Source: Verrucomicrobiales bacterium (GTDB lineage Bacteria; Verrucomicrobiota; Verrucomicrobiia; Limisphaerales; J093). From it: a stretch of 64,000 nt of DNA. The notes under the pieces were generated by a model, which was not told the origin of the DNA, did no database searches, and saw only the letters and a list, made by a program, of their open reading frames with translations. A program made the position numbers and the translations under genes. Location: contig JACKPW010000001.1 in assembly GCA_024233215.1 (NCBI GenBank), positions 91,734 to 155,733 of the forward strand, written 5' to 3'. The stretch's first letter is position 1. Each line of letters opens with the position of its first letter. Shown here in pieces: positions 16,795 through 42,341 of the stretch.

Positions 16795-16948
16795 ACCACG
16801 AATGAACACGAATTCACACGAATCTACCACGGACGCCGAGCGTCTTCGGGAGGTGGCTCAGCCCTTGCGAAGGGCAACGTGGCTACGACTCGAGAGCACC
16901 ACCGCGCAGGCCCTTGGGGATTCGTGTGAATTCGTGTTCATTCGTGGT
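16795..16948. repeat. intergenic palindromic element, copy B (perfect 30-bp inverted arms)
   Basis: Left ACCACGAATGAACACGAATTCACACGAATC (16795-16824). Right GATTCGTGTGAATTCGTGTTCATTCGTGGT (16919-16948) is its exact reverse complement. ~94-nt loop. A further CCACGAA follows immediately 5' of the next start codon. Confidence 0.8.
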
Positions 16949-27724: not shown

Positions 27725-27927
27725 AACCACGAATGAACCTGGAAACCGCAGATGAACGGGGATGAACGCAGATAAGTCCCTCGACGTGAGCCCCCCACGT
27801 CCGCCGGATGTCTTCACCCATTGGGTGTGACGCGAAAATCGCGCAAGTCCTTGGGTATCTGCGTCTATCTGTGTCGATCTGCGGTTCAACTGCTTTTTCT
27901 AGGATGAACACGAATCCACACGAAAGG
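27725..27927. repeat. intergenic palindromic element, copy D (divergent/composite variant with GATGAAC-type sub-repeats)
   Basis: AACCACGAATGAACC…CCGCAGATGAACGGGGATGAACGCAGATA (left) versus TATCTGCGTCTATCTGTGTCGATCTGCGG (right, ~22/29 reverse-complement match). Then CTGCTTTTT…GATGAACACGAATCCACACGAAAGG. The direct repeat ACTGCTTTTT occurs at 27691 and 27888. Confidence 0.55.
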
Positions 27928-27976: not shown

Positions 27977-28411
27977 TTACCCGTCCTCGGATCTGAGCGT
28001 GGAAAACGGGTTCAGCAGCCGGGCGCCGGTGTTGCGGTATCCCGATTCGTCACGGCTGACCACGATGAGATCGTGAACCATCGCCGTCGCAGCGATCAGA
28101 GCGTTCAGGGTCGGCACGGGTTGCCGCAGCCCCATCCGGCCCCATTGGTTGGCCACCCGTTTGTCCACGCCGAGGATGCGATCCTCGAACTGCGTGCTCA
28201 GGCGCTGCAGCCATCGTTCCAACGTCGTGGCTTGGCGGGCGTCACGCTGCTTGATGCGTTCGATGCCCTGACGGATTTCCCCCAGCACCAGCACGCTCAC
28301 GAACAGGCCGTCAGGGTCCGCCGATTCGATCCAAGTCCGTACTCCCGGGTTGCAGCGGGCCGCTTTTCGAAGTTCGCTCAGGATGTTGGTGTCAAGCAGA
28401 TGGCCGTTCAT
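27977..28411 (-). CDS. vapC: PIN-domain toxin (VapC/FitB-like)
   Basis: MNGHLLDTNILSELRK… (conserved D at the PIN N-terminus). Further acidic residues. 144 aa. Confidence 0.85.
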   Translation of the reverse strand: MNGHLLDTNILSELRKAARCNPGVRTWIESADPDGLFVSVLVLGEIRQGIERIKQRDARQATTLERWLQRLSTQFEDRILGVDKRVANQWGRMGLRQPVPTLNALIAATAMVHDLIVVSRDESGYRNTGARLLNPFSTLRSEDG

Positions 28412-28644: not shown

Positions 28645-28860
28645 GGTTCTTCAATCGTTCGATCTGCTATCAATGATAGCGCTCGGATCGCATTGTCCAA
28701 GGATTTGTTTCCGGCAATTCGCATGTTGGCGTGGAGCGCGGGCTGGCAGCCGGGACCTGGCGCGACAGTGCCTTGAGCCGGTACCATGTGGGCGCTGTGC
28801 GTGACGGAGTCTCCGGGCACGAGGATTGTGGAGTCGTCATCGGGATGGTATTCAGAGCTC

Positions 28861-30612
28861 ATGCACTCGCGATTTCTGCAAGGCACACTCGCCCTCATCG
28901 CCGGCGCGATGATGGGAGGGACCTCCTCGGTCGGGGCCGACGCCGTCCGGTTCGATCCCGTGATTCGGGACATCGAGGGATGGACCGTGGAGGTGGATCC
29001 GGCATTGCTCGAGGGGGAACATGCGGAGGAGGGGCGACGCGCACTCACGATGCTGGCGAACCACCTTCAGCGGATCAGCATCCTCGTGCCGGAGGAAGCG
29101 CTTGCCCGCCTCAAACAGATCGGGATTTGGATCGAGCGCAGCCATCCCCGTCTGAAGGCGATGCAGTATCATCCCAGCAAGGAGTGGCTGGTGGAGCATG
29201 GACACGATCCGCGCCTTGCCAGGAAGGTGCACATCACCCACGCGCGGGAGTTGCTGTCGCGTGAGCAGATGCTGAAGCATCCGGCCGTGATTCTCCATGA
29301 GCTGGCCCACGCCTATCACGATCAGGTCCTGGGCTTTGACAATCCGGAGATTCTCGCGGCCTACGAGCGGGCCAAGGCCGCCGGCAGCTACGAGAACGTT
29401 CTGCTCTACACCGGAGAGCGGGTGCGGCATTACGGCCTGACCGATCACAAGGAGTATTTCGCGGAGGGCACGGAGGCCTACTTCTATCGAAACGACTTCT
29501 ACCCCTTCGTTCGAGCGGAACTCAAGGAACACGATGCGGCGCTACACGATCTGCTCAAGCAGATCTGGGAGGATGAGAGTCTTCAACAGCCGTTGTTCGT
29601 CAGCGGTCAGGACGGTTATCACACCTACCGCATTCCGGCGCTGGCGGTGACCACGAACCGGACGCTGCTCGCCTTTTGCGAAGGGCGGCAGGGCGGTCGG
29701 GGCGACAGTGGAAACATCGACCTGCTGGTGAAGCGTTCCACTGACGGAGGTCGGACCTGGAGCCCGCACCAGGTGATCTGGGACGACGCCGGCAACACCT
29801 GTGGCAATCCGTCGCCGGTAGTGGACGAGTCGACCGGGACGATCTGGCTCCTCATGACGTGGAATCGTGGCGACGATCACGAAAGCCAGATCATTGCGCA
29901 AACGAGCCGGGACACGCGCCGCGTTTTCGTAACGCGATCCGTTGATGATGGGCGGACCTGGGCTGCGCCCGAAGAGATCACCGGATCGGCGAAACTTCCG
30001 AACTGGACCTGGTATGCCACCGGGCCGGGCGCGGGAATCCAACTGCGGAACAGCGACGCGCGCGGTCGGTTGGTGATTCCCTGCGATCACATCGAGGCGG
30101 GGACGAAGCGCTACTTCTCGCACGTCATCTATTCCGACGACCACGGTCGGACCTGGAAACTGGGGGGCACCACGCCGCAGGACCAGGTCAACGAGTGCGA
30201 GGTGGTCGAACTCAAGGACGGGCGCCTCCTGCTCAACATGCGCAATTACGATCGCTCGAAGCATCAACGTCAGGTTGCGTTCAGTGAGGACGGCGGGCTG
30301 ACTTGGAAGAGTCAGCGTTTCGATGTTGCGCTGGTCGAACCGATCTGTCAGGCGAGCATCCGCCGTTGTGGCGACGTCATTCTCTTTTCCAACCCGGCCA
30401 GCGAGAAGAGCCGCGTGAACCTGACCGTGCGGCTGAGCGACGACGAAGGCCTGACCTGGCAGGCGGCACGCGCCCTGTGGGCCGGACCGGCCGCGTACTC
30501 CGACCTGGCCGATCTCGGCGGTGGTCGGGCTGCCTGTCTCTACGAACGCGGCGACACCCAACCGTACGAGACCATCACCTTCGCGAGCTTCGGTCTCGGT
30601 TGGCTGCGGTGA
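28861..30612 (+). CDS. secreted two-domain protein: N-terminal HExxH zincin-like domain fused to GH33 sialidase/BNR-repeat beta-propeller
   Basis: In-frame ATG 28861 with signal peptide. HELAHAYH plus downstream E ([10 protein letters not shown]). Then YRIPAL (sialidase RIP motif) and five Asp-box/BNR repeats ([40 protein letters not shown]). Confidence 0.75.
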
Positions 30613-30913: not shown

Positions 30914-33088
30914 ATGTTGGAAATCTTCCTTTACGTCGTCGGAGGCATTGTGGCGGTCCTGTTCGTCTCCGTCTTCCTGGTCTGCATTCGCAAGATCCAG
31001 CCCGGTCGGGCCGGCGTGAAGACCGGTTGGGGCGGCATCAAGGTGTCCTTCGACTACATGATCCGCCTGCCCCTGCTGCAGACCTATCACATCGTCGACA
31101 TCTCGGTGAAGAAACTCGAGATCTCGCGCAAGGGAAAGGACGGTCTGGTCTGCAAGGACAACATCCGCGCCGACATCACGGTCGCCTTCTACATCCGGGT
31201 GGAGGCCACGGAGGAGAGCGTCCGGAAGGTCGCCCAGATGCTGACGCCCGAACGGGTGTCCGACATGGACAAGCTGCGCGAGTTGTTCGAGGCCAAGTTC
31301 TCGGAGGCGCTCAAGACCGCGGGCAAACAGATGGAGTTCCACGAGTTGTTCACGGAGCGCATCAAGTTCCGCGACCGGATCCAGGACACCATTGGCAAGG
31401 ATCTCGACGGCTTCCTGTTGCAGGACGTCGCCATCGATTATCTGGAGCAGTCCCCGCTCGAGGAGCATGATCCCAGCAACGTGCTCGATGCCGAGGGCAT
31501 CAAGAAGATCACGCAGATCACGCAGCGCGAACGGGTCATTGCCAACGAACACACCCAGCGCGCCGCCGTCCAGATCGAGAAGGAGAACGCCGACGCCGAG
31601 ATCGCCAAGCGCGAGCAAAAGCGCCGGAACGAGGAGGACTCCGCCAAGCAGCAGCGCGCCATCACCGAGGTTCAGGCCAACGAGGAGGCCGAGGCGCGCA
31701 AGGTGATTGAGGTCCGTCGCATGGAGGTGGAGGGCAAGCGCATCGAGACCGACGAATCCATCCGCCTCCGTACCGAGGACATGAACCGCGCCGTCCAGGA
31801 ACGCGAATACACCGTTCGCAAGGAGAAGGAGCGGTTGGAGCAGGAGGCGGTCCAGGAAGGGGAGGAGGCCCGCGTCCGTCGCGAACGCACCGTCTCACTG
31901 GCGGACATGGACAAGGAGGTCAAGGTGGCCGAGGCCGCGGTCGAGGTGGAACGGAAGCGCGCGATTGTGGTGGCCGAGCAGAAGGCCGTGGTCCAGCAGG
32001 AGGAGGAGAAGCTGAACATCGAGGCGGAGATGACGGCGAACCGCGTTCGCGAGGTCACGTTGATCGAGGCCGACATGAACGCCAAGAAGGCCCAGGTCGA
32101 GAAGGTCGTGGCCGCCGAGGCGCAGAAGGATGCGGACCGGCACCTGGCCGAGGCCGAAAAGATCAAGGCGGTCGTGGCCGCCGAGGCCGGTCGGGAAGCC
32201 GCGCTACGCGAATCCGAGCGCATCCAGACCCTGGCCGATGCGGAGGCGAAGGCCTCGGACAAGAAGCGCCACGCGATGGAACAGGAAGCCGAGGGGTTGG
32301 CCGCGCAGGAGGCGGCACCGGGTTTGGCGGAGGCCCGCGTGATCACCGCCAAGGCGGGCGCCAAGAAGGCGGACGCGGAAGGCGTGCGCGAACTGGGACT
32401 GGCGGAGGCCGACGTCATCAAGGCGAAGGGCACTTCGACGGCCGAAATCACGGAGCAGCAGGCCGAGGCCGAGGCCGAGGGGGTGAAGGACAAGGAACTG
32501 GCGACCGCTGCCGGCATCGAGGCCAAGGGCCTGGCCGAAGCCAGGGGCATCGAGGAAAAGGCGAAGGCGATGAAGTTGCTCCAGGCCGCCAGCCAGCAGC
32601 ACGAGGAGTTCCGCCTCAAGCTGGCGAAGGAACGCGACGTGGATCTGGCCGCGCTCAACGTGCAACGGGAGATCGCCAAGGCGCATTCCACCGTGGTGGG
32701 CGAGGCCCTCAAGCACGCCAACATCGACATCGTCGGCGGCGAGAACGACTTCTTCGAGAAGATCGTCCGCTCGGTCGGCAACGGGAAATCCGTGGACCGG
32801 CTGCTCGAAAACAGCCGGGCGCTGCGCGACGTCAAGAACACGTTCTTCACCGGCGACCGGGAACAGCTCAAGTCGCAGTTGCAGCAGTGGGCCCGGGATT
32901 TCAACGTCGGTTCCGAGGACATCAAGAACCTCACGGTGGCGGCGTTGCTGGCGAAGTTCATGGCATCGACCGACGACAACGTCTTGAAGTCGCTGCTGGA
33001 GTCTGCCCGGGGAATGGTGCAGGAGGCCGGGTTGGCGGATCTCAAGGCTTCCGTCCTGTTGGAGGACAAGAAACCGGCGAAGGCCTGA
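30914..33088 (+). CDS. flotillin-like SPFH/band-7 membrane protein with long Glu/Ala/Lys-rich coiled-coil (~724 aa)
   Basis: In-frame ATG 30914 (MLEIFLYVVGGIVAVLFVSVFLV, N-terminal TM). SPFH core (GWGGIKVSFDYMIRLPLLQTYHIVDISVKKLEISRKGKDGLVCKDNIRADITVAFYIRV). ~450 aa of EAxK-type heptad-rich flotillin-domain sequence. Confidence 0.85.
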   Translation: MLEIFLYVVGGIVAVLFVSVFLVCIRKIQPGRAGVKTGWGGIKVSFDYMIRLPLLQTYHIVDISVKKLEISRKGKDGLVCKDNIRADITVAFYIRVEATEESVRKVAQMLTPERVSDMDKLRELFEAKFSEALKTAGKQMEFHELFTERIKFRDRIQDTIGKDLDGFLLQDVAIDYLEQSPLEEHDPSNVLDAEGIKKITQITQRERVIANEHTQRAAVQIEKENADAEIAKREQKRRNEEDSAKQQRAITEVQANEEAEARKVIEVRRMEVEGKRIETDESIRLRTEDMNRAVQEREYTVRKEKERLEQEAVQEGEEARVRRERTVSLADMDKEVKVAEAAVEVERKRAIVVAEQKAVVQQEEEKLNIEAEMTANRVREVTLIEADMNAKKAQVEKVVAAEAQKDADRHLAEAEKIKAVVAAEAGREAALRESERIQTLADAEAKASDKKRHAMEQEAEGLAAQEAAPGLAEARVITAKAGAKKADAEGVRELGLAEADVIKAKGTSTAEITEQQAEAEAEGVKDKELATAAGIEAKGLAEARGIEEKAKAMKLLQAASQQHEEFRLKLAKERDVDLAALNVQREIAKAHSTVVGEALKHANIDIVGGENDFFEKIVRSVGNGKSVDRLLENSRALRDVKNTFFTGDREQLKSQLQQWARDFNVGSEDIKNLTVAALLAKFMASTDDNVLKSLLESARGMVQEAGLADLKASVLLEDKKPAKA

Positions 33089-33745
33089 TTGCTTGTGGTT
33101 GTGCCCACCCAGGCGGGATCAGTGGTTCGGTGGCTGAAGTCCCGGCTTCGGCACGGGGGGCCAGGGAGGTTCGGCGCAACCTTCGGAGCCCTGTTGGGTT
33201 TGGCCGTTGTCGTGGTGGGGTGTTCGGGATCGGGTGGCGAGGACGCCGCCGACATGTCGAAGACCACTGAGGCGACTGAAAGCGACCTTACGACCAAGGT
33301 TTTCGAGCGGGACACGGACGGGGATGGCAAGCCTGACTTTCGCATGGAGACCTTCCTCCGAGGGGGGCGAAAGGTCTTGGTGCTCACCAGCAAGCCCGAT
33401 CAAAAGGGGGGTATGATCGTTCGGACGAGGTCCTACTTGGTGGGTGGAAACAGCGTCTTCACGGAGGCGGACGAGGATGGGGACGGCGTCTTCGAGAGGT
33501 TGGTTGCCTGGCTTCCACAGACCAATGTTGTTGAGGTGTTTGTTCGCCGGCCGGACGGGACAGTGCGTCCGGCCGGAACGAGGGTGGTTGAGCTGTATGA
33601 GGAGCAACTGTCCGCGATGGACGACTTCTTTGAGGAGGTGTTCGAAAGAGGCGCCGATCTTGTTGACTCGGAGGACCTCGGGGAGTTGTTGCACAAGGCG
33701 CAGAAGCGGATTCAAGACGCCGAGGCTGAGAAGAGGCGACAGTAG
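33089..33745 (+). CDS. small lipoprotein (lipobox VVGC), acidic, function unknown
   Basis: Starts 1 nt after the flotillin stop (TTG/GTG start candidates 33089-33150). LGLAVVVVGCSGSGGED lipobox. Asp-rich calcium-binding-like DTDGDGKPD, DEDGDGVFE. Confidence 0.5.
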   Translation: MLVVVPTQAGSVVRWLKSRLRHGGPGRFGATFGALLGLAVVVVGCSGSGGEDAADMSKTTEATESDLTTKVFERDTDGDGKPDFRMETFLRGGRKVLVLTSKPDQKGGMIVRTRSYLVGGNSVFTEADEDGDGVFERLVAWLPQTNVVEVFVRRPDGTVRPAGTRVVELYEEQLSAMDDFFEEVFERGADLVDSEDLGELLHKAQKRIQDAEAEKRRQ

Positions 33746-33770
33746 GTAGTCACCGGAGTCCACGTAAGTT

Positions 33771-36700
33771 ATGGCCGAAGTCCCTGGACAACCGAATCTC
33801 CCCGAGCAGGAAACCTCCGTCGCTCCCGTCCCCGGAAAGACGGCGACTCAAGCGGCACCGGCTCTCGGCGACGCGACCTACGAGATCATCCGGCAACGGT
33901 TGGACACCCACGCGGCCACGTTGCGCGAACGGCTGAGTCGGTTGGATGCGCGGCGGCAGGAGGTCTTTGGCGCCATCGAATACAAGCTGCTGCAGGCCGA
34001 TCGTATCGTCACGGCCAACAACTGTGTGCCCCGCGACATGGTGCCGCTGGCGGGCGGGCGCTTCCTGTTTGGTTTCAACGTGCGTTTCGGGCTCAAACAG
34101 GAGATCGATTTGGCCGACGTGTTCGCGATCTACCACCGCGACGAAACCACCGGCGCCTGGAAGGAGGCCGGGTTGGACCCGCTGCAGGACGCCGCGTTCC
34201 TCCGCGATTTCAAGCGTCTGTACAACGTCTATGCGAAGACTGTTTTCCGGAAGTTCTCGGTGATCGACGGTCAGCTTTACCTGGTGTTCGGCGTGGGCGC
34301 CGGCGTGGAAGACATCGCCGTCTTCAAGTGGGCTTACAACGACGGCGAACCGCGTTATGTCGATGGTCGGGCGGAGGCGGACTTTCGGCGGGTCGGGTTT
34401 CCGGCGGCGCACGCCTTTCGGTGGCAGATTCCGGATCGCGAGTCCTTCCGTTACGGCGACCACCCGCATCTCTCGATCGAGGACCGGGTCTTCGTGGAGT
34501 GCATCGGGGGCGACCTGACGATCAAGGTGGAGGACAACACGGCGAGCGGTGAGGGCATTTACGAGGAACCGGTCGAGGACCGATACCAGAAGGTGGATGA
34601 CGCGGAAGTGGCCTACGCGGCGTTGGACCATCTGATCCTGCTGAAGATTCGTCCCTACAAGGAAACGGTCACCCGCTACTTCATCTTCAACGAGAAGCTG
34701 CGGCAGGTGGTGCGGGTGGATTCAATCGGCGAATCCTGCGTGCGGTTGCCGGAGGATCAAGGGTTGGTGTTCCCGGACGGCTACTACCTGTCGACGGGTG
34801 AACTGAAACGGTTCGAAGGGCGAACCGTTGGGATGCTCATCGAGCGCGTGATCCCGGCACCGAACGGCGAGGACACGTTGTTCGTGTTCTACAACCGGAC
34901 GAGCGGCGAATACGTGTTGATGCCCTACCGGTTGATCCAACAACGGATCGAGGAGCGGCTGACCTGCCAGGGCTTTTCCCTGTTTCCCAACGGTCATTTG
35001 CTCTCCTTTCGCGCGGAACCGGAGGCACAGAAACACCATCTCATCCAGCTTCGCCAGACCCCGTTCCACCAAGCCGGTCACGAGCCGCCCGGCCAGAAGG
35101 AGGCGTTCCTTTACCAAGTGGGCAACAAGGACGTGGTGCGCGCCCTTTCGGATGGCACCGAAATCCTGACCCTCCTGCGCAAGCCCGATCCTTACGCCGC
35201 GCTCTACACCGACCTCGTCAAACGCTGTGAAGCGGTGCTCGATTCCTACCCGTGGCTCGCGTCGCCGGATGGGTTCGGAGTCGATGAGGCCCTGCGGGCG
35301 GTCCGGGGCGCGGCGGACAAGGCGGTTGCCGAATTCGACAAGGTGCGGCGACTTCGGGCGGAAGCGGCGCGGCAGGTGAAGGAAATCCGCACGCGTTGTC
35401 AGGACCGGTTTGACCTGATCCGGCGCGCCGATTTCAAGAGCCTCAACGACTTTGTCCAGCACCTGACCGCACTCCGGCAGTTGCGGGGCGAGTTGATCAC
35501 GCTGCGCGAGGTGCGGTACATCGATGTCGCGGCGCTTGACGCCGTCGAGGAGACGGTCACGAAACAGGGCGAACACCTCTCGGCGGCCTGCGTGAAGTTC
35601 CTGTTGCGTCCGGAAGCGCTCGAACCGTATCGGAAGGAGGCGGCCTCGCAGTTGGCGGCGGTCGATTCGGTGACCAAGGTCGCCGAGGGACGCGACCTCG
35701 AGAAGACCGTGGCGAAGACCGGTGGCGAACTCGAGATGCTCATCGAAATCGTCAACGGGTTGAAGATCGAGGATGCCACCGAAACGACGCGGATCATCGA
35801 CAGCATCACGGCGGTCTTTGCGACGTTGAACCAGGTTCGGGCGGCGCTGAAGCAGCGACTCAAGAGCCTGGCGGCCGCCGAAGGCGCGGCCCAGTTCGAT
35901 GCCCAGATGAAGCTGCTGGGGCAGTCGGCGGCCAGTTACCTCGACCTGTGCGACACCCCCGCCCGTTGCGACGAGTACCTCAACCGGATCTCCGTCCAGA
36001 TCGAGGAACTTGAAGGTGCATTCGCGGATTTCGAGGAATACACCGTCCAGCTGGCCGAACGGCGCACCGAGCTTTACGAGGCGTTCGAGCAACGCAAAGT
36101 CGCCCTCGTCGAGCAACGCAACAAACGGGCCAACGCCCTCATGACCGCCGCCGAGCGGGTGTTGAAGGTCATTCGCAACCGGTTGGCCGGCTTCCAGACG
36201 CTCGACGCGATCAACGCCTACATGGCGTCGGACCTGATGATCGCCCGGGTCCGGGAGACCATCGACCAGCTGCTCGCTCTTGAGGATTCGGTCAAGGCGG
36301 ACGATTTGCAGGGCCGGCTGAAGAGCGCCCAGCAGGAGGCGGTCCGGCAGTTGAAGGATCGCCAGGAGTTGTTCGTCGGCGGGCAAGACGTCATCAAGCT
36401 CGGGCGCCACCATTTCAACCGGAACACCCAGCCCCTCGACCTCACCATCGTCCAGCGCGACGGCGTCCAGCACCTGCACCTGACGAGCACCAAGTATTTC
36501 GAAGCGATCAACGATCCCGGGTTCAATGCCACGTGGGCGGTCTGGGACCAGGAACTGGTTTCGGAAAACGCCGACGTCTATCGAGCGGAGTACCTCGCCT
36601 GGCAATTGCTGAAGCAAACCGATGGGAGCGCGGGCGGCCCGGCCGCAGCAGCCGGGGAGCCGTTTGGCACGAAGTCGGCGGAACCGCCGGACAGGCGCAC

Positions 36701-39317
36701 GGGGAGGGAGATGCTGCAGCGTTCCAGGGGACCGTCGGGCGGGCCGCCCGACGGGACAGGCGGGCCGCCTGTGCTCCCGGAGGAGTCACATCTCGCTCAG
36801 GTACAGGCATTCGCCGCCACCCGGTATCAGGAGGGTTACACCAAGGGGGTGCACGATCTGGACGCCGCGCTGATTTCCCGCGCGTTGCTGTCGACCCATG
36901 CCGCCTTGGGACTTGCCCGTTACCGTCCCGCTGCCCGGGGCTGCGCCGCCGTCTTCTGGCACCGTTTCTGTCCGGAGAACGTGAAGACCCTTTGGACGCA
37001 CAAGCTTGCCGCCTTCGCGGAGCGTAACCGGTTGTTCCCCGGCGACCCCACCCAACGCGACTACGTCATGGCACTGGCGAGACTGCTCAAGGGATTCGCC
37101 GAGGGCACCGGGCTCTTTCCGACTGCGCTCGCGGACGAGGCGGGCGGTTATCTTTTTCAGCAGCTCACCGCCGGCGGGCCGTTTGTGGTCAGCCGGGAAG
37201 GGGACCGGTTGCTGGCCGGGTTCCGCCAGCACTTGGTACAGCAGGATCGCGAGACGGCATTCACGGAATCGCGCCAACGCCTCGCCGATCATCCGGAGAG
37301 CGAACTCGAACTGGTCCGGGACTGGGTGCGCGGTTTTCTCCTCAACCGGCCGGAAACCCAGCGCCACCTGGATGAGGTGGTCGGCGTGCTGTTTTGCGGC
37401 GAGGCGTTCGAGGGCCGGCCGGTGGAAGCCGACAGCGCGTGCGAGATCGAGGGGCTGAAGGGGAGCCATCGCCGGATTCAGGACGGGCGCTACCATTTCG
37501 ATTACCTCGACTTTAGGGATCGCCTCGAGCATTTCGCATCGACCGTCCAGCCGGAGTTCGAGCGGTTCCATGCACTCAAGCAACAGCTCCTGCAACGCGA
37601 ACGCGAACGGCTGCGGCTCGAGGAATTCTCGCCGCGCGTCCTCACTTCCTTCGTCCGGAACCAGCTGATCGACGAGGTCTACCTGCCGCTCATCGGCGAC
37701 AACCTGGCCAAACAGGTCGGTGCCGCGGGCGATCGGAAACGCACCGACCTGATGGGCCTGCTCCTGCTGATCTCCCCGCCGGGCTACGGCAAGACCACGT
37801 TGATGGAATACATCGCCAACCGGCTGGGCATCATCTTTGTCAAGGTGAACGGACCGGCCCTGGGCGATCGGGTGACTTCACTGGATCCGGCCGACGCGCC
37901 CAACGCCGCGGCCCGCGAGGAGATCGAGAAACTCAACCTTGCCCTGGAGATGGGGGACAATGCGATGCTCTACGTCGACGACATCCAGCATTGCAGTCCG
38001 GAGTTTCTCCAGAAGTTCATCTCGCTGTGCGATGCGCAGCGGAAGATCGAGGGCGTGTGGCGGGGGCGTTCGCGCACCTACGATTTGCGCGGCCGGAAGG
38101 TGGTCGTGGTCATGGCCGGGAATCCCTACACCGAAAGCGGACAGAAATTCCGCATTCCGGACATGCTGGCGAACCGCGCCGATACCTACAACCTCGGCGA
38201 CATCATCGGCGGCAATCCGGCCTGGTTCAAAGCCAGTTACCTCGAGAACGCCGTCACGTCGAACGCGCTCCTTGCACCACTGGCCAACAAGAGCCAGAAC
38301 GACGTCCGGCATTTCATTCGACTGGCCGAGACCGGCGAGCGCGATCTCAGCGGCTTTGACGGGAGCTACTCGGCGCAGGAGGTCGACGAGATCCTGTCCG
38401 TGATGAAGAAACTGGTGCAGCTCCGCGAAGTCATCCTGCGGGTCAACCAGGAGTATATCGCCTCCGCCGCCCAGGCCGACGAGTTCCGCACCGAACCGCC
38501 GTTCAAGCTCCAGGGATCCTATCGGAACATGAACCGGCTTGCGGAGAAGGTGGTGCCGGTCATGACCGACGAGGAAGTGAGCGCGCTGGTTCTGGAACAC
38601 TACCGGGGCGAGGCGCAGACGCTCACGACCGGGGCCGAGGCGAATCTTCTGAAGTTCAGGGAACTCGTGGGTGCGCAGACCGAATCCGAGGCCTCGCGTT
38701 GGCAGGAGATCAAGCGCACGTTCAATCGAAACCAACGTACGGGACGCGTGGACCCGTCGGATTCGGTCGGTCGCGTGGTGGCGCAGTTGGCCGGTTTCCA
38801 GGACGGTCTCGAGTCAATTCAGAACACATTGGCGCAACGCCTTACGGAGACGCGCCCGCCGGTGACCCTGGATCTGGGGCCGGTGGCGGAAGGGCTTGCC
38901 GGCATTCGTGCGGTCGTCGAGCAGCAACTTGCCGGCGTCAACCAGGCCACGCAGCCGGAGGTTCGTCCTGATCCCGGGGAACTGGCACGCCAGTTGAGCG
39001 AGGGACTCCACGCCTTACGTTCCGACCTCAGCCGCGCGATCACCGAGGTTCACACGGGCGCGATGGCGGAGAAAGTCACCAGCCTGTCGCACGAAATGGA
39101 GATGTTGCACAGCACGCTGGCCACTTTGAAGGACGTCGCGGCCCGGCAGCGCGATTATCTTCGGAACGTCGAGGCCATGCTGGTCGAGCAGGCCCGGAAG
39201 GGGGCGGTTGAATTTGAGTTGACCCAGGAGATGCTGACGAACGAACAGGCGTTCCTGGACAAGTTCCATGAGATGCTCGGCGAAAGGGAAGCGCCGCCAC
39301 CACCGGCGGCGACTTGA
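33771..39317 (+). CDS. giant (1848 aa) multidomain protein with C-terminal-third MoxR/AAA_5-type ATPase core; function unknown
   Basis: Walker A LISPPGYGKTT (~37767-37799). Walker B NAMLYVDDIQH (~37965-37990). Sensor/arginine region VVVMAGNPYTESGQKFRIPDMLANRADTYNL, analogous to the MoxR ATQNP…LDRF region. >1300 aa upstream has a beta-rich N-domain and long helical regions. Starts 25 nt after the lipoprotein stop. Confidence 0.75.
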   Translation: MAEVPGQPNLPEQETSVAPVPGKTATQAAPALGDATYEIIRQRLDTHAATLRERLSRLDARRQEVFGAIEYKLLQADRIVTANNCVPRDMVPLAGGRFLFGFNVRFGLKQEIDLADVFAIYHRDETTGAWKEAGLDPLQDAAFLRDFKRLYNVYAKTVFRKFSVIDGQLYLVFGVGAGVEDIAVFKWAYNDGEPRYVDGRAEADFRRVGFPAAHAFRWQIPDRESFRYGDHPHLSIEDRVFVECIGGDLTIKVEDNTASGEGIYEEPVEDRYQKVDDAEVAYAALDHLILLKIRPYKETVTRYFIFNEKLRQVVRVDSIGESCVRLPEDQGLVFPDGYYLSTGELKRFEGRTVGMLIERVIPAPNGEDTLFVFYNRTSGEYVLMPYRLIQQRIEERLTCQGFSLFPNGHLLSFRAEPEAQKHHLIQLRQTPFHQAGHEPPGQKEAFLYQVGNKDVVRALSDGTEILTLLRKPDPYAALYTDLVKRCEAVLDSYPWLASPDGFGVDEALRAVRGAADKAVAEFDKVRRLRAEAARQVKEIRTRCQDRFDLIRRADFKSLNDFVQHLTALRQLRGELITLREVRYIDVAALDAVEETVTKQGEHLSAACVKFLLRPEALEPYRKEAASQLAAVDSVTKVAEGRDLEKTVAKTGGELEMLIEIVNGLKIEDATETTRIIDSITAVFATLNQVRAALKQRLKSLAAAEGAAQFDAQMKLLGQSAASYLDLCDTPARCDEYLNRISVQIEELEGAFADFEEYTVQLAERRTELYEAFEQRKVALVEQRNKRANALMTAAERVLKVIRNRLAGFQTLDAINAYMASDLMIARVRETIDQLLALEDSVKADDLQGRLKSAQQEAVRQLKDRQELFVGGQDVIKLGRHHFNRNTQPLDLTIVQRDGVQHLHLTSTKYFEAINDPGFNATWAVWDQELVSENADVYRAEYLAWQLLKQTDGSAGGPAAAAGEPFGTKSAEPPDRRTGREMLQRSRGPSGGPPDGTGGPPVLPEESHLAQVQAFAATRYQEGYTKGVHDLDAALISRALLSTHAALGLARYRPAARGCAAVFWHRFCPENVKTLWTHKLAAFAERNRLFPGDPTQRDYVMALARLLKGFAEGTGLFPTALADEAGGYLFQQLTAGGPFVVSREGDRLLAGFRQHLVQQDRETAFTESRQRLADHPESELELVRDWVRGFLLNRPETQRHLDEVVGVLFCGEAFEGRPVEADSACEIEGLKGSHRRIQDGRYHFDYLDFRDRLEHFASTVQPEFERFHALKQQLLQRERERLRLEEFSPRVLTSFVRNQLIDEVYLPLIGDNLAKQVGAAGDRKRTDLMGLLLLISPPGYGKTTLMEYIANRLGIIFVKVNGPALGDRVTSLDPADAPNAAAREEIEKLNLALEMGDNAMLYVDDIQHCSPEFLQKFISLCDAQRKIEGVWRGRSRTYDLRGRKVVVVMAGNPYTESGQKFRIPDMLANRADTYNLGDIIGGNPAWFKASYLENAVTSNALLAPLANKSQNDVRHFIRLAETGERDLSGFDGSYSAQEVDEILSVMKKLVQLREVILRVNQEYIASAAQADEFRTEPPFKLQGSYRNMNRLAEKVVPVMTDEEVSALVLEHYRGEAQTLTTGAEANLLKFRELVGAQTESEASRWQEIKRTFNRNQRTGRVDPSDSVGRVVAQLAGFQDGLESIQNTLAQRLTETRPPVTLDLGPVAEGLAGIRAVVEQQLAGVNQATQPEVRPDPGELARQLSEGLHALRSDLSRAITEVHTGAMAEKVTSLSHEMEMLHSTLATLKDVAARQRDYLRNVEAMLVEQARKGAVEFELTQEMLTNEQAFLDKFHEMLGEREAPPPPAAT

Positions 39318-39331
39318 GGACGCTGCAGAGG

Positions 39332-39486
39332 GACCACGAATGAACACGAATGGACACCAATCCGAACGGAGGAGGCTTCGAAGGGCGGCCTTGAAGGACC
39401 TCGCCGGCATCGGAAGCCCGGGTTGCTGTGGCGTTGACCTTGAACCCCTCGCTCCCATTCGTGTCCATTCGTGTGGATTCGTGGTC
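39332..39486. repeat. intergenic palindromic element, copy E
   Basis: Left GACCACGAATGAACACGAATGGACACCAATCC (39332-39363). Right CCATTCGTGTCCATTCGTGTGGATTCGTGGTC (39456-39486), an imperfect reverse complement. 14 nt after the giant ATPase stop. Confidence 0.7.
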
Positions 39487-39515
39487 ACGGCAGGAGTCGT
39501 CAGATCGTGCACAAC

Positions 39516-40385
39516 ATGAAGAAGTTCATTCAGAAGATCCAAAGACTGGGGCAGCGAGCCACCGAGCTGAAGGAGGCCGTCCAACGCGTGCCGCCCAAGG
39601 TCGCCGGTATCCGGAACGCCGTGGTCCTCACCGGCGGGCAACTCAGGGAACTGGGCGTCCAGGTGCAGAACAGCATTGCCGGGCTCAAGGCGGATCGAGA
39701 GGACGATCTTCTCAACGCCCTGAGGGAGGTCAACGACAGCGCGGGCATCATCCGGCAGGCGGGCTTCGAGCTTGGCGGGATTGATTTCGAGCTCAGCCCG
39801 GTCCAGCGCCTGATCGTTCACCTGCAGCGACGCGAGGATGTGCGGACCGCCGTGCTGGAATCCTTGCGCGACGCGTCGAGTGCCCGGCCGACCGTGCATG
39901 CCCTGTTGACTTCCCTGGTCCGGGCCGAGGAAACGGCCGACAGCGTGCACATAACCGATCTCTCCTACCACACGCTGGTGATTCACATTGGCCCCGCCCC
40001 CACGGTGCGCCTTTGCTGGCGGCCTGCGCCATCCCTGGCGCAGGGCGCCAACGCCAGCGTGCTGGCGACTGCGTCGACCGTTCCGGCGAGCCCTTCGGAA
40101 GCCCCGGACCGGCCCTCGTTCTTCGGTGAGAACCCGCCCGCCACGGATGGGTTCACGAGCCGTGAAGCCGTGGCTGAGGATGAGCCGCCCTCCCCGGCTT
40201 CCTCCGAGCCGCCGGCACCCCGGACCGGGCCGACGCCGGAACCGGTGAGGGTTGTCAGGCCGGCTTCGCCGCCCCCGCCCCCTCCACGCGAGGTGATTGG
40301 GAAGAAGGAGGCCCCACCCGTCTGGAACAGCGACGCGCTTCAGCGGTTCAAAACCATGCCCAAGGCATCGAAGTACCGCCGGTAA
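39516..40385 (+). CDS. hypothetical protein: ~190-aa helical N-domain plus Pro/Ser/Ala-rich disordered tail
   Basis: ATG 39516 (MKKFIQKIQRLGQRATELKEAVQRV…). Protein-like composition. The antisense alternative (39015..40568 -) is Arg-rich junk. C-terminus PASPPPPPPREVIGKKEAPP. Confidence 0.45.
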   Translation: MKKFIQKIQRLGQRATELKEAVQRVPPKVAGIRNAVVLTGGQLRELGVQVQNSIAGLKADREDDLLNALREVNDSAGIIRQAGFELGGIDFELSPVQRLIVHLQRREDVRTAVLESLRDASSARPTVHALLTSLVRAEETADSVHITDLSYHTLVIHIGPAPTVRLCWRPAPSLAQGANASVLATASTVPASPSEAPDRPSFFGENPPATDGFTSREAVAEDEPPSPASSEPPAPRTGPTPEPVRVVRPASPPPPPPREVIGKKEAPPVWNSDALQRFKTMPKASKYRR

Positions 40386-40690: not shown

Positions 40691-41341
40691 ATGACGGCTG
40701 GCATGGCGGCGACGCTTCTTGTGTTCACCGGCGGGTTCATCGTGATGATCCTGGAGATTGTCGGGGCGCGGTATTTGTCGGGAGAATTCGGGGGTTCCTT
40801 CTACGTCTGGGTGAGCCAGATCGGTGTGGTCATGATTGCGCTGGCGGCCGGTTACTACCTCGGTGGCGCGCTCGCCGATCGCTGGCAATGCCTGCGGCGG
40901 CTGGCCTGGCTGCTGGTGCCCGCAGGCCTGCTGGTGATGGGAGTTCCCGGTTACGCCCCGCCGATCCTGGAGCGGATCGTGCTCCGGCATCCGGCCGAGT
41001 TGCCTGTGCCATTGCTGTGGAAGAAACTCGATCCCGCGCTGGGCAGCGCCGTGGTTTTCCTGCTGCCCTGCCTGGTGCTGGCGATGCTGACGCCCTATCT
41101 GATTCGTCTGAGCGCCCGCGGTGTGGCCCACCTGGGTCGGCTCAGCGGTCGCATCATCGCCTGGAGCACGCTGGGGAGCATCGCCGGGGTGTTCGTGGCG
41201 GGGTATGTGCTCATCGATCTGCTGCGGCTCTCGACGATCTTCCGGCTCACGGGGCTGGCGATGGTGGGGCTGGGCCTGTTGTGCCTCCCACTGGATCGCG
41301 CCTTTGCATCCGGACCCGTTCCGGTGGATGATGAGCCCTGA
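40691..41341 (+). CDS. polytopic membrane domain protein (N-terminal module of spermidine-synthase-like membrane proteins)
   Basis: 6 predicted TM helices (MTAGMAATLLVFTGGFIVMILEIVGA…). Stop overlaps the start of the next ORF in another frame. Confidence 0.6.
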   Translation: MTAGMAATLLVFTGGFIVMILEIVGARYLSGEFGGSFYVWVSQIGVVMIALAAGYYLGGALADRWQCLRRLAWLLVPAGLLVMGVPGYAPPILERIVLRHPAELPVPLLWKKLDPALGSAVVFLLPCLVLAMLTPYLIRLSARGVAHLGRLSGRIIAWSTLGSIAGVFVAGYVLIDLLRLSTIFRLTGLAMVGLGLLCLPLDRAFASGPVPVDDEP

Positions 41342-42341
41342 AATGCACACGCCCCGTTCTGTTGTCGCTGCTGCGAATGTCCGCTTCACGCCGCGGGTCG
41401 GTTCCCTGCGGTGCGCACCGATCTGGGGTCGACGAATCGCCCCCGCCGGAATCCTGCTGATCCTGGGCGGACTGTTGCTCCTGCCGGTCGCGCGCGTCAC
41501 GGGCGGCGTGATTTACGAAACGACCTCCGCCTACCACCGGATACAGGTCGTTGATCAACGGGGACTGCGGACCCTTAGTTTCAATGGGACCGAGGAGACC
41601 CGCATGTCCCTGGCCAACCCCTTGCAGGGCCATTTCCAATACATCGAATACTTCTTCATGCCCTGGTGCTGGAACACGAACCTGACCAACGTTCTCATGG
41701 TGGGGCTTGGCGGCGGCAGCGTTCAGCGGTTGTATGCGGCCCACTGTCCGAATGTCAGCATCGATACCGCGGAGATCGACCCGACGGTGAGGGAGGTGGC
41801 GGAGAAGTATTTCCGGTATGAGCCGGGTCCCCGGCAGCGGGTGTTCGTGGAGGACGGCCGGGTGTTCCTGCGCCGGAGCACGACGCGCTATGGTGCGATC
41901 GTGATGGACGCCTACCGGAAGGGGCGCTACGGATCCGGCATTCCGGCTCATCTGGCCACGCAGGAGTTCTTCAAGCTGGCCCGGGAACATCTGACTGATG
42001 ACGGAGTGCTGGCCTACAACGTGATCGGCAGTGTGGGGGGGTATCGGGCCGAGATCGTGGGGTCGATCTACCGCACGATGCAGACTGTGTTTCCCCACGT
42101 GTACGTTTTCCCCGCACCGGACAGCATCAACGTGGTGATGGTGGGCACCGTGGCGGAGTATCCGGTCACGATGGCGTGGCTGCTCGATCGTGCCCGGGCC
42201 GTCTCCGAGTCCGGAGCAGTCGCACTGCCGACTCTGACCCAAAGGGTGCGGGCGTTCCGAGCCCTGCCTCCGCCGAATTTGCCCCAATGTCCGGTGCTGA
42301 CCGACGACTATGCGCCGGTGGACGGTTTGCTGGGGGAATAA
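41328..42341 (+). CDS. spermidine-synthase-like (PABS/class-I methyltransferase fold) protein with one N-terminal TM helix
   Basis: Start candidates ATG 41328/41331/41344. ILLILGGLLLLPVA (TM), then VIYETTSAYHRIQVVD, VLMVGLGGGS (nucleotide-binding GxGxG), DAY…G. Confidence 0.65.
   Translation: MMSPEMHTPRSVVAAANVRFTPRVGSLRCAPIWGRRIAPAGILLILGGLLLLPVARVTGGVIYETTSAYHRIQVVDQRGLRTLSFNGTEETRMSLANPLQGHFQYIEYFFMPWCWNTNLTNVLMVGLGGGSVQRLYAAHCPNVSIDTAEIDPTVREVAEKYFRYEPGPRQRVFVEDGRVFLRRSTTRYGAIVMDAYRKGRYGSGIPAHLATQEFFKLAREHLTDDGVLAYNVIGSVGGYRAEIVGSIYRTMQTVFPHVYVFPAPDSINVVMVGTVAEYPVTMAWLLDRARAVSESGAVALPTLTQRVRAFRALPPPNLPQCPVLTDDYAPVDGLLGE

Follow-up and report, generated by a model that had tools for sequence, protein, structure and literature searches.

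Bacterial flotillins and polymers of the ESCRT-III-like protein PspA are believed to have roles in membrane organisation and repair. An operon that combines a flotillin gene with genes for a 3TM YqiJ/YuaF (NfeD2-like) protein and a coiled-coil and β-propeller AAA+ ATPase and, in its full form only, with a CesT/Tir–PspA dyad was described computationally by Ravi et al. (2024; PMC11237479). In the operon descriptions of that paper, this operon and its abbreviated forms are presented as partners of PspA with a link to phage-shock membrane stress, and the ATPase is present 'in some cases'. The full module has the gene order CesT/Tir-like, PspA, YqiJ/NfeD-like, flotillin, β-propeller–AAA+ ATPase. 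Other described NfeD2–flotillin arrangements are yqiJ–yqiK of Escherichia coli and yuaF–floT of Bacillus subtilis. Genetic coupling of an SPFH scaffold to an AAA+ machine is likewise found in HflK/C–FtsH and prohibitin–m-AAA. In B. subtilis, the SPFH protein YdjI is required for membrane localisation of PspA (PMC11188069). A 2025 review notes that no Vps4-like, ATP-driven regulator is known for PspA in bacteria (PMC7619361).

The locus described here is located in a 64-kb stretch of DNA from a Verrucomicrobiales bacterium, hereafter the window, and is an ordinary member of the published operon class. All four ORFs of the preliminary description were confirmed at their places on the plus strand: A, encoding a YqiK-type flotillin of 724 aa (positions 30914–33088); B, an acidic lipoprotein (33122–33745); C, an ATPase of 1848 aa (33771–39317); and D, a soluble basic protein of 289 aa (39516–40385). 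The spacer between A and B measures 0 or 34 nt, depending on whether B starts at TTG 33089 or at the more likely GTG 33122; B and C are 25 nt apart.

The families of the flotillin and the ATPase, their order, and their strand are the same as in the operon described by Ravi et al. (2024; PMC11237479), so that the architecture can no longer be called undescribed. Namely, A is a flotillin with one N-terminal TM helix and a match to YqiK (E 8.4e-42), and C corresponds to the coiled-coil and β-propeller AAA+ ATPase encoded directly downstream of the flotillin. The 3TM YqiJ/YuaF protein and the CesT/Tir–PspA dyad are missing from the window, while the additional genes B and D do not appear in the operon descriptions of that paper. 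The locus is an abbreviated Verrucomicrobial variant, which lacks YqiJ, CesT, and PspA and has gained D. Our analysis adds to this operon class a quantified coupling to the flotillin, the AAA+ clade and domain layout of the ATPase, and the definition of the D family. On balance, we regard the locus as a probable copy, modified in this lineage, of an envelope-stress module that is widespread and in which C would use ATP to remodel assemblies of flotillin (and PspA).

Protein A is composed of a TM anchor, an SPFH/band-7 domain, a long coiled coil rich in E, A, and K, and a conserved C-terminal domain. The single N-terminal hydrophobic helix comprises residues 1–31, and E, K, R, A, and Q account for 63% of residues 201–560. 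Searches with A produced no matches in Pfam and NCBIfam, even at E 10, nor by sequence in the PDB; the sole match in a PDB profile search was QmcA (E 0.005), inside the coiled coil. The decisive evidence, and the only one that establishes the assignment of A to the flotillin-like SPFH proteins, is the profile comparison with E. coli YqiK. At the E value given above, the family alignment A2 matched YqiK with an hhalign probability of 100% and 29% identity over 391 columns, which extend from the TM helix over the SPFH domain to the coiled coil. With 553 residues, YqiK is about 170 residues shorter than A, whose C-terminal part did not align. Homologs of A carry the names flotillin or YqiK at NCBI and JGI. 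The initial reading of this gene as a 724-aa SPFH protein with an N-terminal TM helix and a long coiled coil agrees with the helix and the coiled-coil composition seen in A itself and, via the YqiK profile, with the SPFH domain. Since basic residues follow the TM helix, most of A is predicted to be cytoplasmic.

Protein C has a mass of 207 kDa, and no hydrophobic segment was found in it. With one TM helix in A and none in C, both proteins are predicted to face the cytoplasm. Pfam searches with C identified DUF3686 (E 2.6e-160), DUF7902 (E 4.2e-26), and, weakly, AAA/AAA_5 (E about 5e-6). The family is large, with 871 clusters at 50% identity and relatives confirmed in at least 585 matching stretches of GTDB species genomes. 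According to confident AF2 models (pLDDT 86.7 and 86.8), the N-terminal half of C is predicted to consist of a β-rich, propeller-like domain (DUF3686; residues 51–493, positions 33921–35249), preceded by a long helix (residues 34–66), and of spectrin-repeat-like helical bundles (residues 446–867, positions 35106–36371) that include DUF7902 (residues 615–698). The AAA+ module with its lid domain occupies residues from about 1295 to 1660 (positions 37653–38750). Long helices of lower model confidence (pLDDT 40–75) form the C-terminus (residues from about 1665 to 1848, positions 38763–39314). The β-domain has weak structural matches only, which makes its binding role a guess.

C carries invariant ATPase motifs. 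They include Walker A (GYGKTT, residues 1338–1343) and Walker B, which reads DD (residues 1403–1404) as opposed to DE in MoxR proteins; N1451 and R1469 were assigned by position as sensor 1 and arginine finger, respectively. C shares with midasin, dynein, and MoxR modules a β-hairpin ahead of the sensor-1 strand, and the lid domain follows. Structure comparisons placed the AAA+ fold nearest to midasin, dynein, and two MoxR proteins, CbbQ and NorQ, with RavA also among the best matches. Accordingly, the AAA+ module of C has the fold of the MoxR/dynein clade. However, MoxR proteins are about 300 aa long and have VWA/MIDAS partners, whereas C, at 1848 aa, combines helical rods and a propeller with a single AAA+ module; a VWA family was detected neither in A, B, C, or D nor among the 25 commonest families of 143 flanking ORFs. 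The suggestion that this ATPase stands outside the characterised families is thus upheld by its DUF3686 assignment and by the missing VWA partner.

C is labelled a 'DNA repair ATPase' by its NCBI product name and in Pfam's description of DUF3686, and weak matches to the N-terminal P-loop region of RuvB (E 6.7e-5) point the same way. A flotillin would then either tether a repair enzyme near the membrane or be unrelated to it. This reading is very improbable. The RuvB matches are confined to the Walker A region and reach 23 bits against a family cut-off of 282, and searches of C revealed neither a nuclease nor a helicase, SMC-hinge, or DNA-binding domain. C has membrane proteins as its conserved partners (YqiJ-like, flotillin, and PspA), and a literature search for DUF3686/PF12458 gave no supporting paper. 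The database name looks unfounded.

In 61 of the 64 genome loci collected with C, a homolog of A (37–79% identity) was located directly upstream of C and in the same orientation; three ATPase loci, L018, L019, and L044, had no flotillin next to C. Conversely, C followed A in all 52 metagenome loci collected with A in which the downstream DNA extended for 1.5 kb or more. The linked genome loci come from Verrucomicrobiota, Planctomycetota, Bacteroidota, Desulfobacterales, Clostridia, and Chitinispirillaceae, and the identities of A and C to the window copies are correlated (r = 0.93, 99 loci). That three unrelated genes were packed together by chance is excluded for A and C, given the order conserved in 61/64 and 52/52 loci from at least six phyla; their adjacency is not incidental. 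For this flotillin subfamily, the coupling is almost obligatory. The pairing of an SPFH protein with the ATPase was proposed to be a system unless relatives of C usually occurred apart from SPFH genes, and these counts show the opposite.

The incidental reading is correct for lipoprotein B alone. This protein has a signal peptide with the lipobox VVVG↓C, a mature pI of 4.6, and two DxDxDG loops; no Pfam family was identified, and matches to EF-hand and FG-GAP were below threshold. A homolog of B was present in just one of 163 related loci (L093, 42% identity). Even L163, the closest relative (86% identity to C in its ATPase), lacks B. The A–C spacer is an insertion hot spot among related loci. 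Thus, the lipoprotein, absent from 162 of the 163 loci, drops out of the system in which it was first included; B is a recent lineage-specific insertion, not a conserved component, and probably represents passenger DNA in an insertion-prone spacer.

The preliminary description also set the locus apart from the classical pairing of flotillins with NfeD-type proteins. This contrast does not apply to most relatives, which carry a YqiJ/NfeD2-like gene upstream of A (53 of 80 genome loci and 52 of 67 metagenome loci). The upstream family matched E. coli YqiJ with an hhalign probability of 97.1% (E 6.4e-11), just as A resembles YqiK. The gene is missing only from the clade of the window, where neither tblastn nor an HMM built from 53 family members found a match within the 64 kb; it may be located elsewhere in the genome. 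The window thus differs from yqiJ–yqiK and yuaF–floT in lacking an NfeD-type gene, and from the E. coli operon also in possessing an ATPase gene. PspA and CesT-like genes were likewise without a match in the window. PspA_IM30 (13), CesT_Tir_1 (10), and an HTH regulator (10) were the commonest Pfam families in the 143 flanking ORFs, and the loci behind the corresponding clusters of upstream ORFs were all from Bacteroidota. These Bacteroidota loci reproduce the gene string given for Dokdonia donghaensis in Table S3 of Ravi et al. (2024; PMC11237479) and agree with the text of that paper. Overall, PspA was encoded nearby in 33 of 162 related loci.

The same neighbourhoods bear on a possible defence role, which had been suggested earlier. 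An anti-phage or abortive-infection system that senses membrane perturbation during infection could be imagined from a PIN-domain toxin gene 2.5 kb upstream of the operon (27977–28411, minus strand), a type XIII retron adjoining one related locus, a weak resemblance of the Bacteroidota regulator to CapH-type HTH proteins, and the name 'phage shock' borne by PspA. We consider it improbable. Proteins A, B, and D had no match in PADLOC-DB 2.0, and those of C were weak and limited to the coiled-coil region (LmuB, E 4e-4; PbeC, E 5e-3). The sole recurrent match to PADLOC models in the 143 flanking ORFs was a generic HTH regulator; the flanks otherwise contain ordinary housekeeping genes, which differ between loci. 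No relatives were found in IMG/VR viral contigs, and no effector domain (nuclease, NADase, or pore former) was detected. A defence role is therefore unsupported by PADLOC, gene neighbourhoods, and viral contigs.

The protein with a Pro-rich tail noted after the operon is indeed present. In protein D, a Pro-rich linker connects a conserved N-terminal domain (about 170 aa) to the likewise conserved C-terminal motif ALxRFKxMPxxSK(YRR). Homologs of D are encoded directly downstream of C in 11 related loci (L001–L004, L006, L085, L087, L088, L093, L095, and L163), and near C on the opposite strand in six others (L008, L009, L098, L100, L164, and L165). None of the 253 proteins of this family is named. 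D is a Verrucomicrobia-specific partner of the A–C pair and represents a new family.

From these data we infer that the A–C pair most likely serves to remodel assemblies of flotillin (and PspA) at the inner membrane at the expense of ATP. Protein A would be anchored in the inner membrane through its N-terminal helix and, by analogy with other SPFH proteins, may form an oligomeric cage or patch at the cytoplasmic side. Protein C, which is soluble, would form a ring via its MoxR-like AAA+ domain (about 1.2 MDa as a hexamer) and dock onto the flotillin assembly by its β-propeller and spectrin-like rod. ATP would be spent on assembling, disassembling, or remodelling the flotillin scaffold in response to envelope stress and, where PspA is present, also on the flotillin-recruited, ESCRT-III-like PspA polymer. 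Since PspA accompanies just 33 of 162 loci, the action of C may instead be limited to flotillin or to clients other than PspA; in the window, which lacks PspA, CesT-like, and YqiJ-like genes, a link to PspA depends on genes elsewhere in the genome. In the Verrucomicrobial clade of the window, the operon has lost the YqiJ-like membrane partner and has acquired D, which carries a C-terminal peptide motif and probably serves as an adaptor or regulator.

In an alternative that we rate as unlikely, a MoxR-like chaperone uses the flotillin only as its platform or cage; its clients would be other membrane proteins or cofactor complexes, the scaffold would not be a substrate, and PspA would be irrelevant. 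Such an arrangement might resemble HflK/C–FtsH and the prohibitin–m-AAA protease, or the maturation of enzyme targets by CbbQ and NorQ. However, C has neither a TM segment nor a recognisable protease domain, unlike the AAA+ partners of HflK/C and prohibitin, and a cytoplasmic location is predicted for both A and C, whereas those assemblies are located on the periplasmic or intermembrane side. A VWA/MIDAS partner is missing from the operon and from the 25 commonest flanking families, and no candidate client gene is conserved beside the module.

Remodelling of flotillin and PspA assemblies by C invites comparison with ESCRT-III/Vps4 of archaea and eukaryotes and with PspA–YdjI of B. subtilis. 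The full operon co-encodes PspA, an SPFH protein, and an AAA+ ATPase, and the analogy is functional. The almost obligatory flotillin coupling, the abundance of relatives, and the co-encoded PspA in Bacteroidota make C a candidate for the missing Vps4-like regulator. Features of Vps4 itself, an N-terminal MIT domain and an AAA fold of the classical clade, were not found in C, whose AAA+ module resembles MoxR-type chaperones more closely than it does Vps4 or other classical unfoldases. In a reading that we consider unlikely, C is the bacterial counterpart of Vps4: a ring of the MoxR clade, attached to a flotillin cage through its β-propeller and spectrin-like arm, would spend ATP on turning over flotillin and PspA polymers in membrane repair, and in Verrucomicrobia D, with a C-terminal docking peptide, would take the place of the NfeD-type partner as a new adaptor. 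If so, the β-propeller and helical-repeat front end of C would make it a bacterial membrane-coat-like machine.

The C–D spacer is 198 nt long in the window, as compared to 44–55 nt in L001 and L163. It contains the palindromic CACGAAT-repeat element noted earlier at the end of the operon, which is 155 nt long (39332–39486, no strand) and has inverted arms of 37 nt that are 84% complementary. Its motif has nine matches in the window, with 0.03 expected by chance; they include a second full copy of the element at 16797–16946. The element is a genome-dispersed repeat inserted in the C–D spacer and lies outside the system.

At positions 30914–40385 the window, which has a G+C content of approximately 64%, carries an abbreviated and lineage-modified form of an operon class that has been published but is experimentally untouched. 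The locus comprises four open reading frames (ORFs) on the forward strand. These are the flotillin-like gene A (30914–33088; 724 aa), the lipoprotein gene B (33089 or 33122 to 33745), the giant ATPase gene C (33771–39317; 1848 aa, 207 kDa), and gene D (39516–40385; 289 aa), whose product ends in a Pro-rich tail. The spacers measure 0 or 34 nt (A–B), 25 nt (B–C), and 198 nt (C–D), and a scan for promoters and terminators yielded nothing above chance level. Protein A possesses a single N-terminal hydrophobic helix with basic residues after it and a long stretch rich in E, A, K, R, and Q. The signal peptide of protein B terminates at the lipobox VVVG|C; the mature form has a pI of 4.6 and carries two DxDxDG loops. 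No hydrophobic segment is present in C. The preliminary description of these genes was accurate, and the observation as such is confirmed; its interpretation was right in part only.

Searches with A gave no match in Pfam, NCBIfam (even at E 10) or, by sequence, the PDB, and a profile search of the PDB returned QmcA alone, by a coiled-coil match. The SPFH domain of A escapes the Pfam Band_7 model entirely. NCBI and JGI annotate homologues of A in Verrucomicrobia/Limisphaerales (75–95% identity) as 'flotillin family protein' or 'YqiK'. An alignment of the A family (31 sequences) was compared by hhalign with YqiK, the flotillin encoded by E. coli yqiJ-yqiK, giving a probability of 100% and E 8.4e-42. 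The aligned region spans 391 columns with 29% identity and takes in the TM helix, SPFH domain, and coiled coil. This match bears out the flotillin-like nature of A and marks it as a putative YqiK-type flotillin, which differs from YqiK in being approximately 170 residues longer, with a C-terminal part that is not aligned.

Protein C matched the Pfam families DUF3686 (E 2.6e-160) and DUF7902 (E 4.2e-26), and weakly AAA and AAA_5. The AlphaFold2 models, obtained with a 63-sequence alignment, were confident (pLDDT 86.7 for residues 1–960 and 86.8 for residues 1010–1848). They predict a long helix (residues 34–66), a β-rich domain (72–429), helical bundles (446–867), a small β-domain (874–912) followed by a low-complexity linker, a helical domain (about 1010–1290), and an AAA+ α/β domain in which a β-hairpin precedes the sensor-1 strand; a lid comes next, and then long C-terminal helices. 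On the basis of these models, the AAA+ module is assigned to the MoxR/dynein clade. A set of 28 diverse homologues shows no variation in Walker A (GYGKTT), Walker B (DD), N1451, or R1469, so that C is expected to be active as an ATPase. The NCBI name of the family, 'DNA repair ATPase', follows the Pfam description of DUF3686 and is backed by no DNA-related domain and no paper that was found; full-text searches for DUF3686, PF12458, or 'DNA repair ATPase' in combination with flotillin retrieved no paper. A protease pairing of the HflK/C-FtsH kind was rejected for A and C, since C has neither a TM segment nor a protease domain.

A search with residues 1–700 of C against 1.84 billion representative proteins revealed 871 matching clusters (50% identity), the typical length in the family being 1600–1900 aa. 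Looking up the exact C sequence of the window turned up no contig. In GTDB (one genome per species), at least 585 relatives were confirmed of 600 matching stretches listed. The best 80 of these, among the matches listed, were taken as genome loci for comparison; they originate from Verrucomicrobiota, Planctomycetota, Bacteroidota, Desulfobacterales, Clostridia, and Chitinispirillaceae. Within this set, 64 loci extend 2.6 kb or more upstream of C, and in 61 of them a homologue of A (37–79% identity) was located upstream on the same strand; in the other three (L018, L019, and L044) unrelated genes occupy this position. The reverse survey, which started from A in metagenome contigs, identified C downstream on the same strand in all 52 loci that extend 1.5 kb or more beyond A. 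Identities of A and C to the window copies were correlated across 99 loci (r = 0.93). The A–C pair is therefore a conserved unit and not an incidental adjacency, and the coupling of flotillin and ATPase proposed at the outset stands. In L018 (4378–7023), where C has no adjacent flotillin, genes for a STAND-type NTPase (NACHT/AAA_16) and a TPR protein occur approximately 3–5.5 kb upstream of the ATPase gene.

Clustering of all ORFs from the genome loci (the best 80 among the matches listed) revealed a third conserved gene, which encodes approximately 200–260 aa and is located directly upstream of A in 53 loci. Its product combines TM helices with an acidic loop rich in DxD and a β-rich C-terminal part. 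The match to E. coli YqiJ (hhalign 97.1%, E 6.4e-11) and a weak match to Pfam YqiJ_N identify it as an NfeD2-type partner. The models most commonly matched by the 143 flanking ORFs in a Pfam scan were PspA_IM30 (13), CesT_Tir_1 (10), and an HTH regulator (10). The upstream-ORF clusters of PspA, CesT-like, and HTH genes were all derived from Bacteroidota, in which the gene order is HTH (divergent), CesT-like, PspA, YqiJ-like, flotillin, and ATPase. No YqiJ-like, PspA, or CesT-like gene was present in the 64 kb of the window, and the YqiJ-like gene is likewise absent from its Limisphaerales-type relatives.

The divergent regulator in Bacteroidota is of the XRE-type HTH class and approximately 250 aa long (for example, 4900–5655 in L053 and 3942–4652 in L015, both on the reverse strand); it weakly matches the PADLOC models of CapH and 'control protein'. 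The regulator of the full operon is given as an HTH+protease fusion in Table S3 of Ravi et al. (PMC11237479). The features of the XRE-type regulator hint at de-repression of the operon by its proteolysis.

Ravi, Anantharaman et al. (mSystems 2024, PMC11237479) report an operon that joins CesT/Tir-PspA with three further genes. The gene string listed for Dokdonia donghaensis in their Table S3 is the one seen in other Flavobacteriaceae loci here; comparative genomics has therefore already made the system known, and the claim of an undescribed architecture does not hold. No ATPase is mentioned by Hinderhofer et al. (2009) in their account of SPFH operons, and our literature search found no experimental work on the flotillin/β-propeller-AAA+ operon. 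According to a 2025 review (PMC7619361), bacterial PspA still seems to lack a regulator of the Vps4 kind. The additions that were not found in the accessible parts of the published description are modest: flotillin and ATPase are coupled near-obligately, the AAA+ module is assigned to the MoxR/dynein clade from confident models, the Verrucomicrobia-specific partner D appears where the NfeD-type gene is missing, and the lipoprotein is a passenger in an insertion-prone spacer.

The lipoprotein had initially been counted among the operon components. No homologue of B was detected in the 81 genome loci and only one in the metagenome loci (L093, 42% identity), again between A and C. The closest available relative, L163, whose C is 86% identical, contains A, an 82-nt spacer, C, and a D homologue, and lacks the lipoprotein. 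Across the family, the A–C spacer varies in length between about 0 and 2.4 kb and carries unrelated cargo, namely other lipoproteins, a DMP19-like protein, IS200/RAYT-type transposases, DUF559 endonuclease-like genes, and REP-like tandem repeats (L021, L024, L027, L029, L036, L038, L041, L070, L086, L087, and L002), with A and C on the same strand throughout. The spacer is an insertion hot spot across phyla, and B, a recent passenger, does not belong to the system.

Homologues of D directly follow C in every Limisphaerales-type locus with sufficient downstream DNA, and a more distant Verrucomicrobial subclade encodes them close by, on the opposite strand. A relative with only 25% identity to D also adjoins an A–C pair, beside a PLD-superfamily gene. 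The D family is small and comprises 253 proteins, all unnamed and from Verrucomicrobiota only, and occurs exactly in the clade without the YqiJ-like gene. The proteins share a conserved domain of approximately 170 residues. In the Limisphaerales type a Pro-rich, disordered linker comes next, and then the motif ALxRFKxMPxxSK, which is conserved at the C-terminus; the shorter opposite-strand copies in the alignment lack both. Such a layout would be typical of an adaptor or regulator docking by a terminal peptide. The idea that D is a displaced NfeD-like protein was set aside solely because D lacks a TM segment. The PLD-superfamily (PLDc_2) gene lies beside the D–ATPase–flotillin cluster in marine Verrucomicrobiota (L164, 5503–6207; L165, 4693–5397), and a PLD (HKD) hydrolase is noted for proteobacterial operon versions by Ravi et al. 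(PMC11237479).

In the best-supported reading, A would assemble into a flotillin scaffold that is anchored to the inner membrane and faces the cytoplasm, and C would be an AAA+ ring that binds this scaffold or its partners via the propeller and the rod. ATP spent by C may then drive assembly, disassembly, or remodeling of flotillin, and of PspA where present, during envelope stress. The gene identities, folds, motifs, and gene order in this model are observed; we infer the interaction, the oligomeric state of C, the substrate, and what triggers the system physiologically. In the main rival reading, flotillin would do no more than position C, as a MoxR-like chaperone acting on other membrane clients. 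The defence role suggested in the preliminary description lacks support: PADLOC models give weak coiled-coil hits at most, the flanks show no enrichment of defence genes, and a scan of IMG/VR revealed no relative in viral contigs. In a single related locus the module adjoins a type XIII retron, recognised by RT, SWIM, and WGR models with E down to 0 (1 of 143 flanking ORFs).

Upstream of the operon, the window contains a PIN-domain (VapC-like) gene (27977–28411, reverse strand) and a BNR/sialidase-like gene (28786–30612, forward strand), neither of which recurs beside the module in relatives. Downstream, a multi-TM ORF (40691–41341) is overlapped in another frame by an ORF with TM and spermidine-synthase-like regions (41121–42341), both on the forward strand; the two could be one frameshifted gene. 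Fusions of 7TM and spermine synthase domains occur in other PspA operons according to Ravi et al. (PMC11237479). As members of the system, the genes at 40691–42341 were rejected: no homologue was found near any of the 163 related loci, so their adjacency is probably due to chance. The C–D spacer, 44–55 nt long in relatives versus 198 nt in the window, contains a palindromic element of approximately 155 nt (39332–39486), composed of tandem CACGAAT(N3) units in inverted arms. The repeat also occurs at 16797–16946 and 27909–27925, and the CACGAAT motif has nine matches in the window versus 0.03 expected by chance. The element looks like a dispersed repeat of the REP or MITE type.
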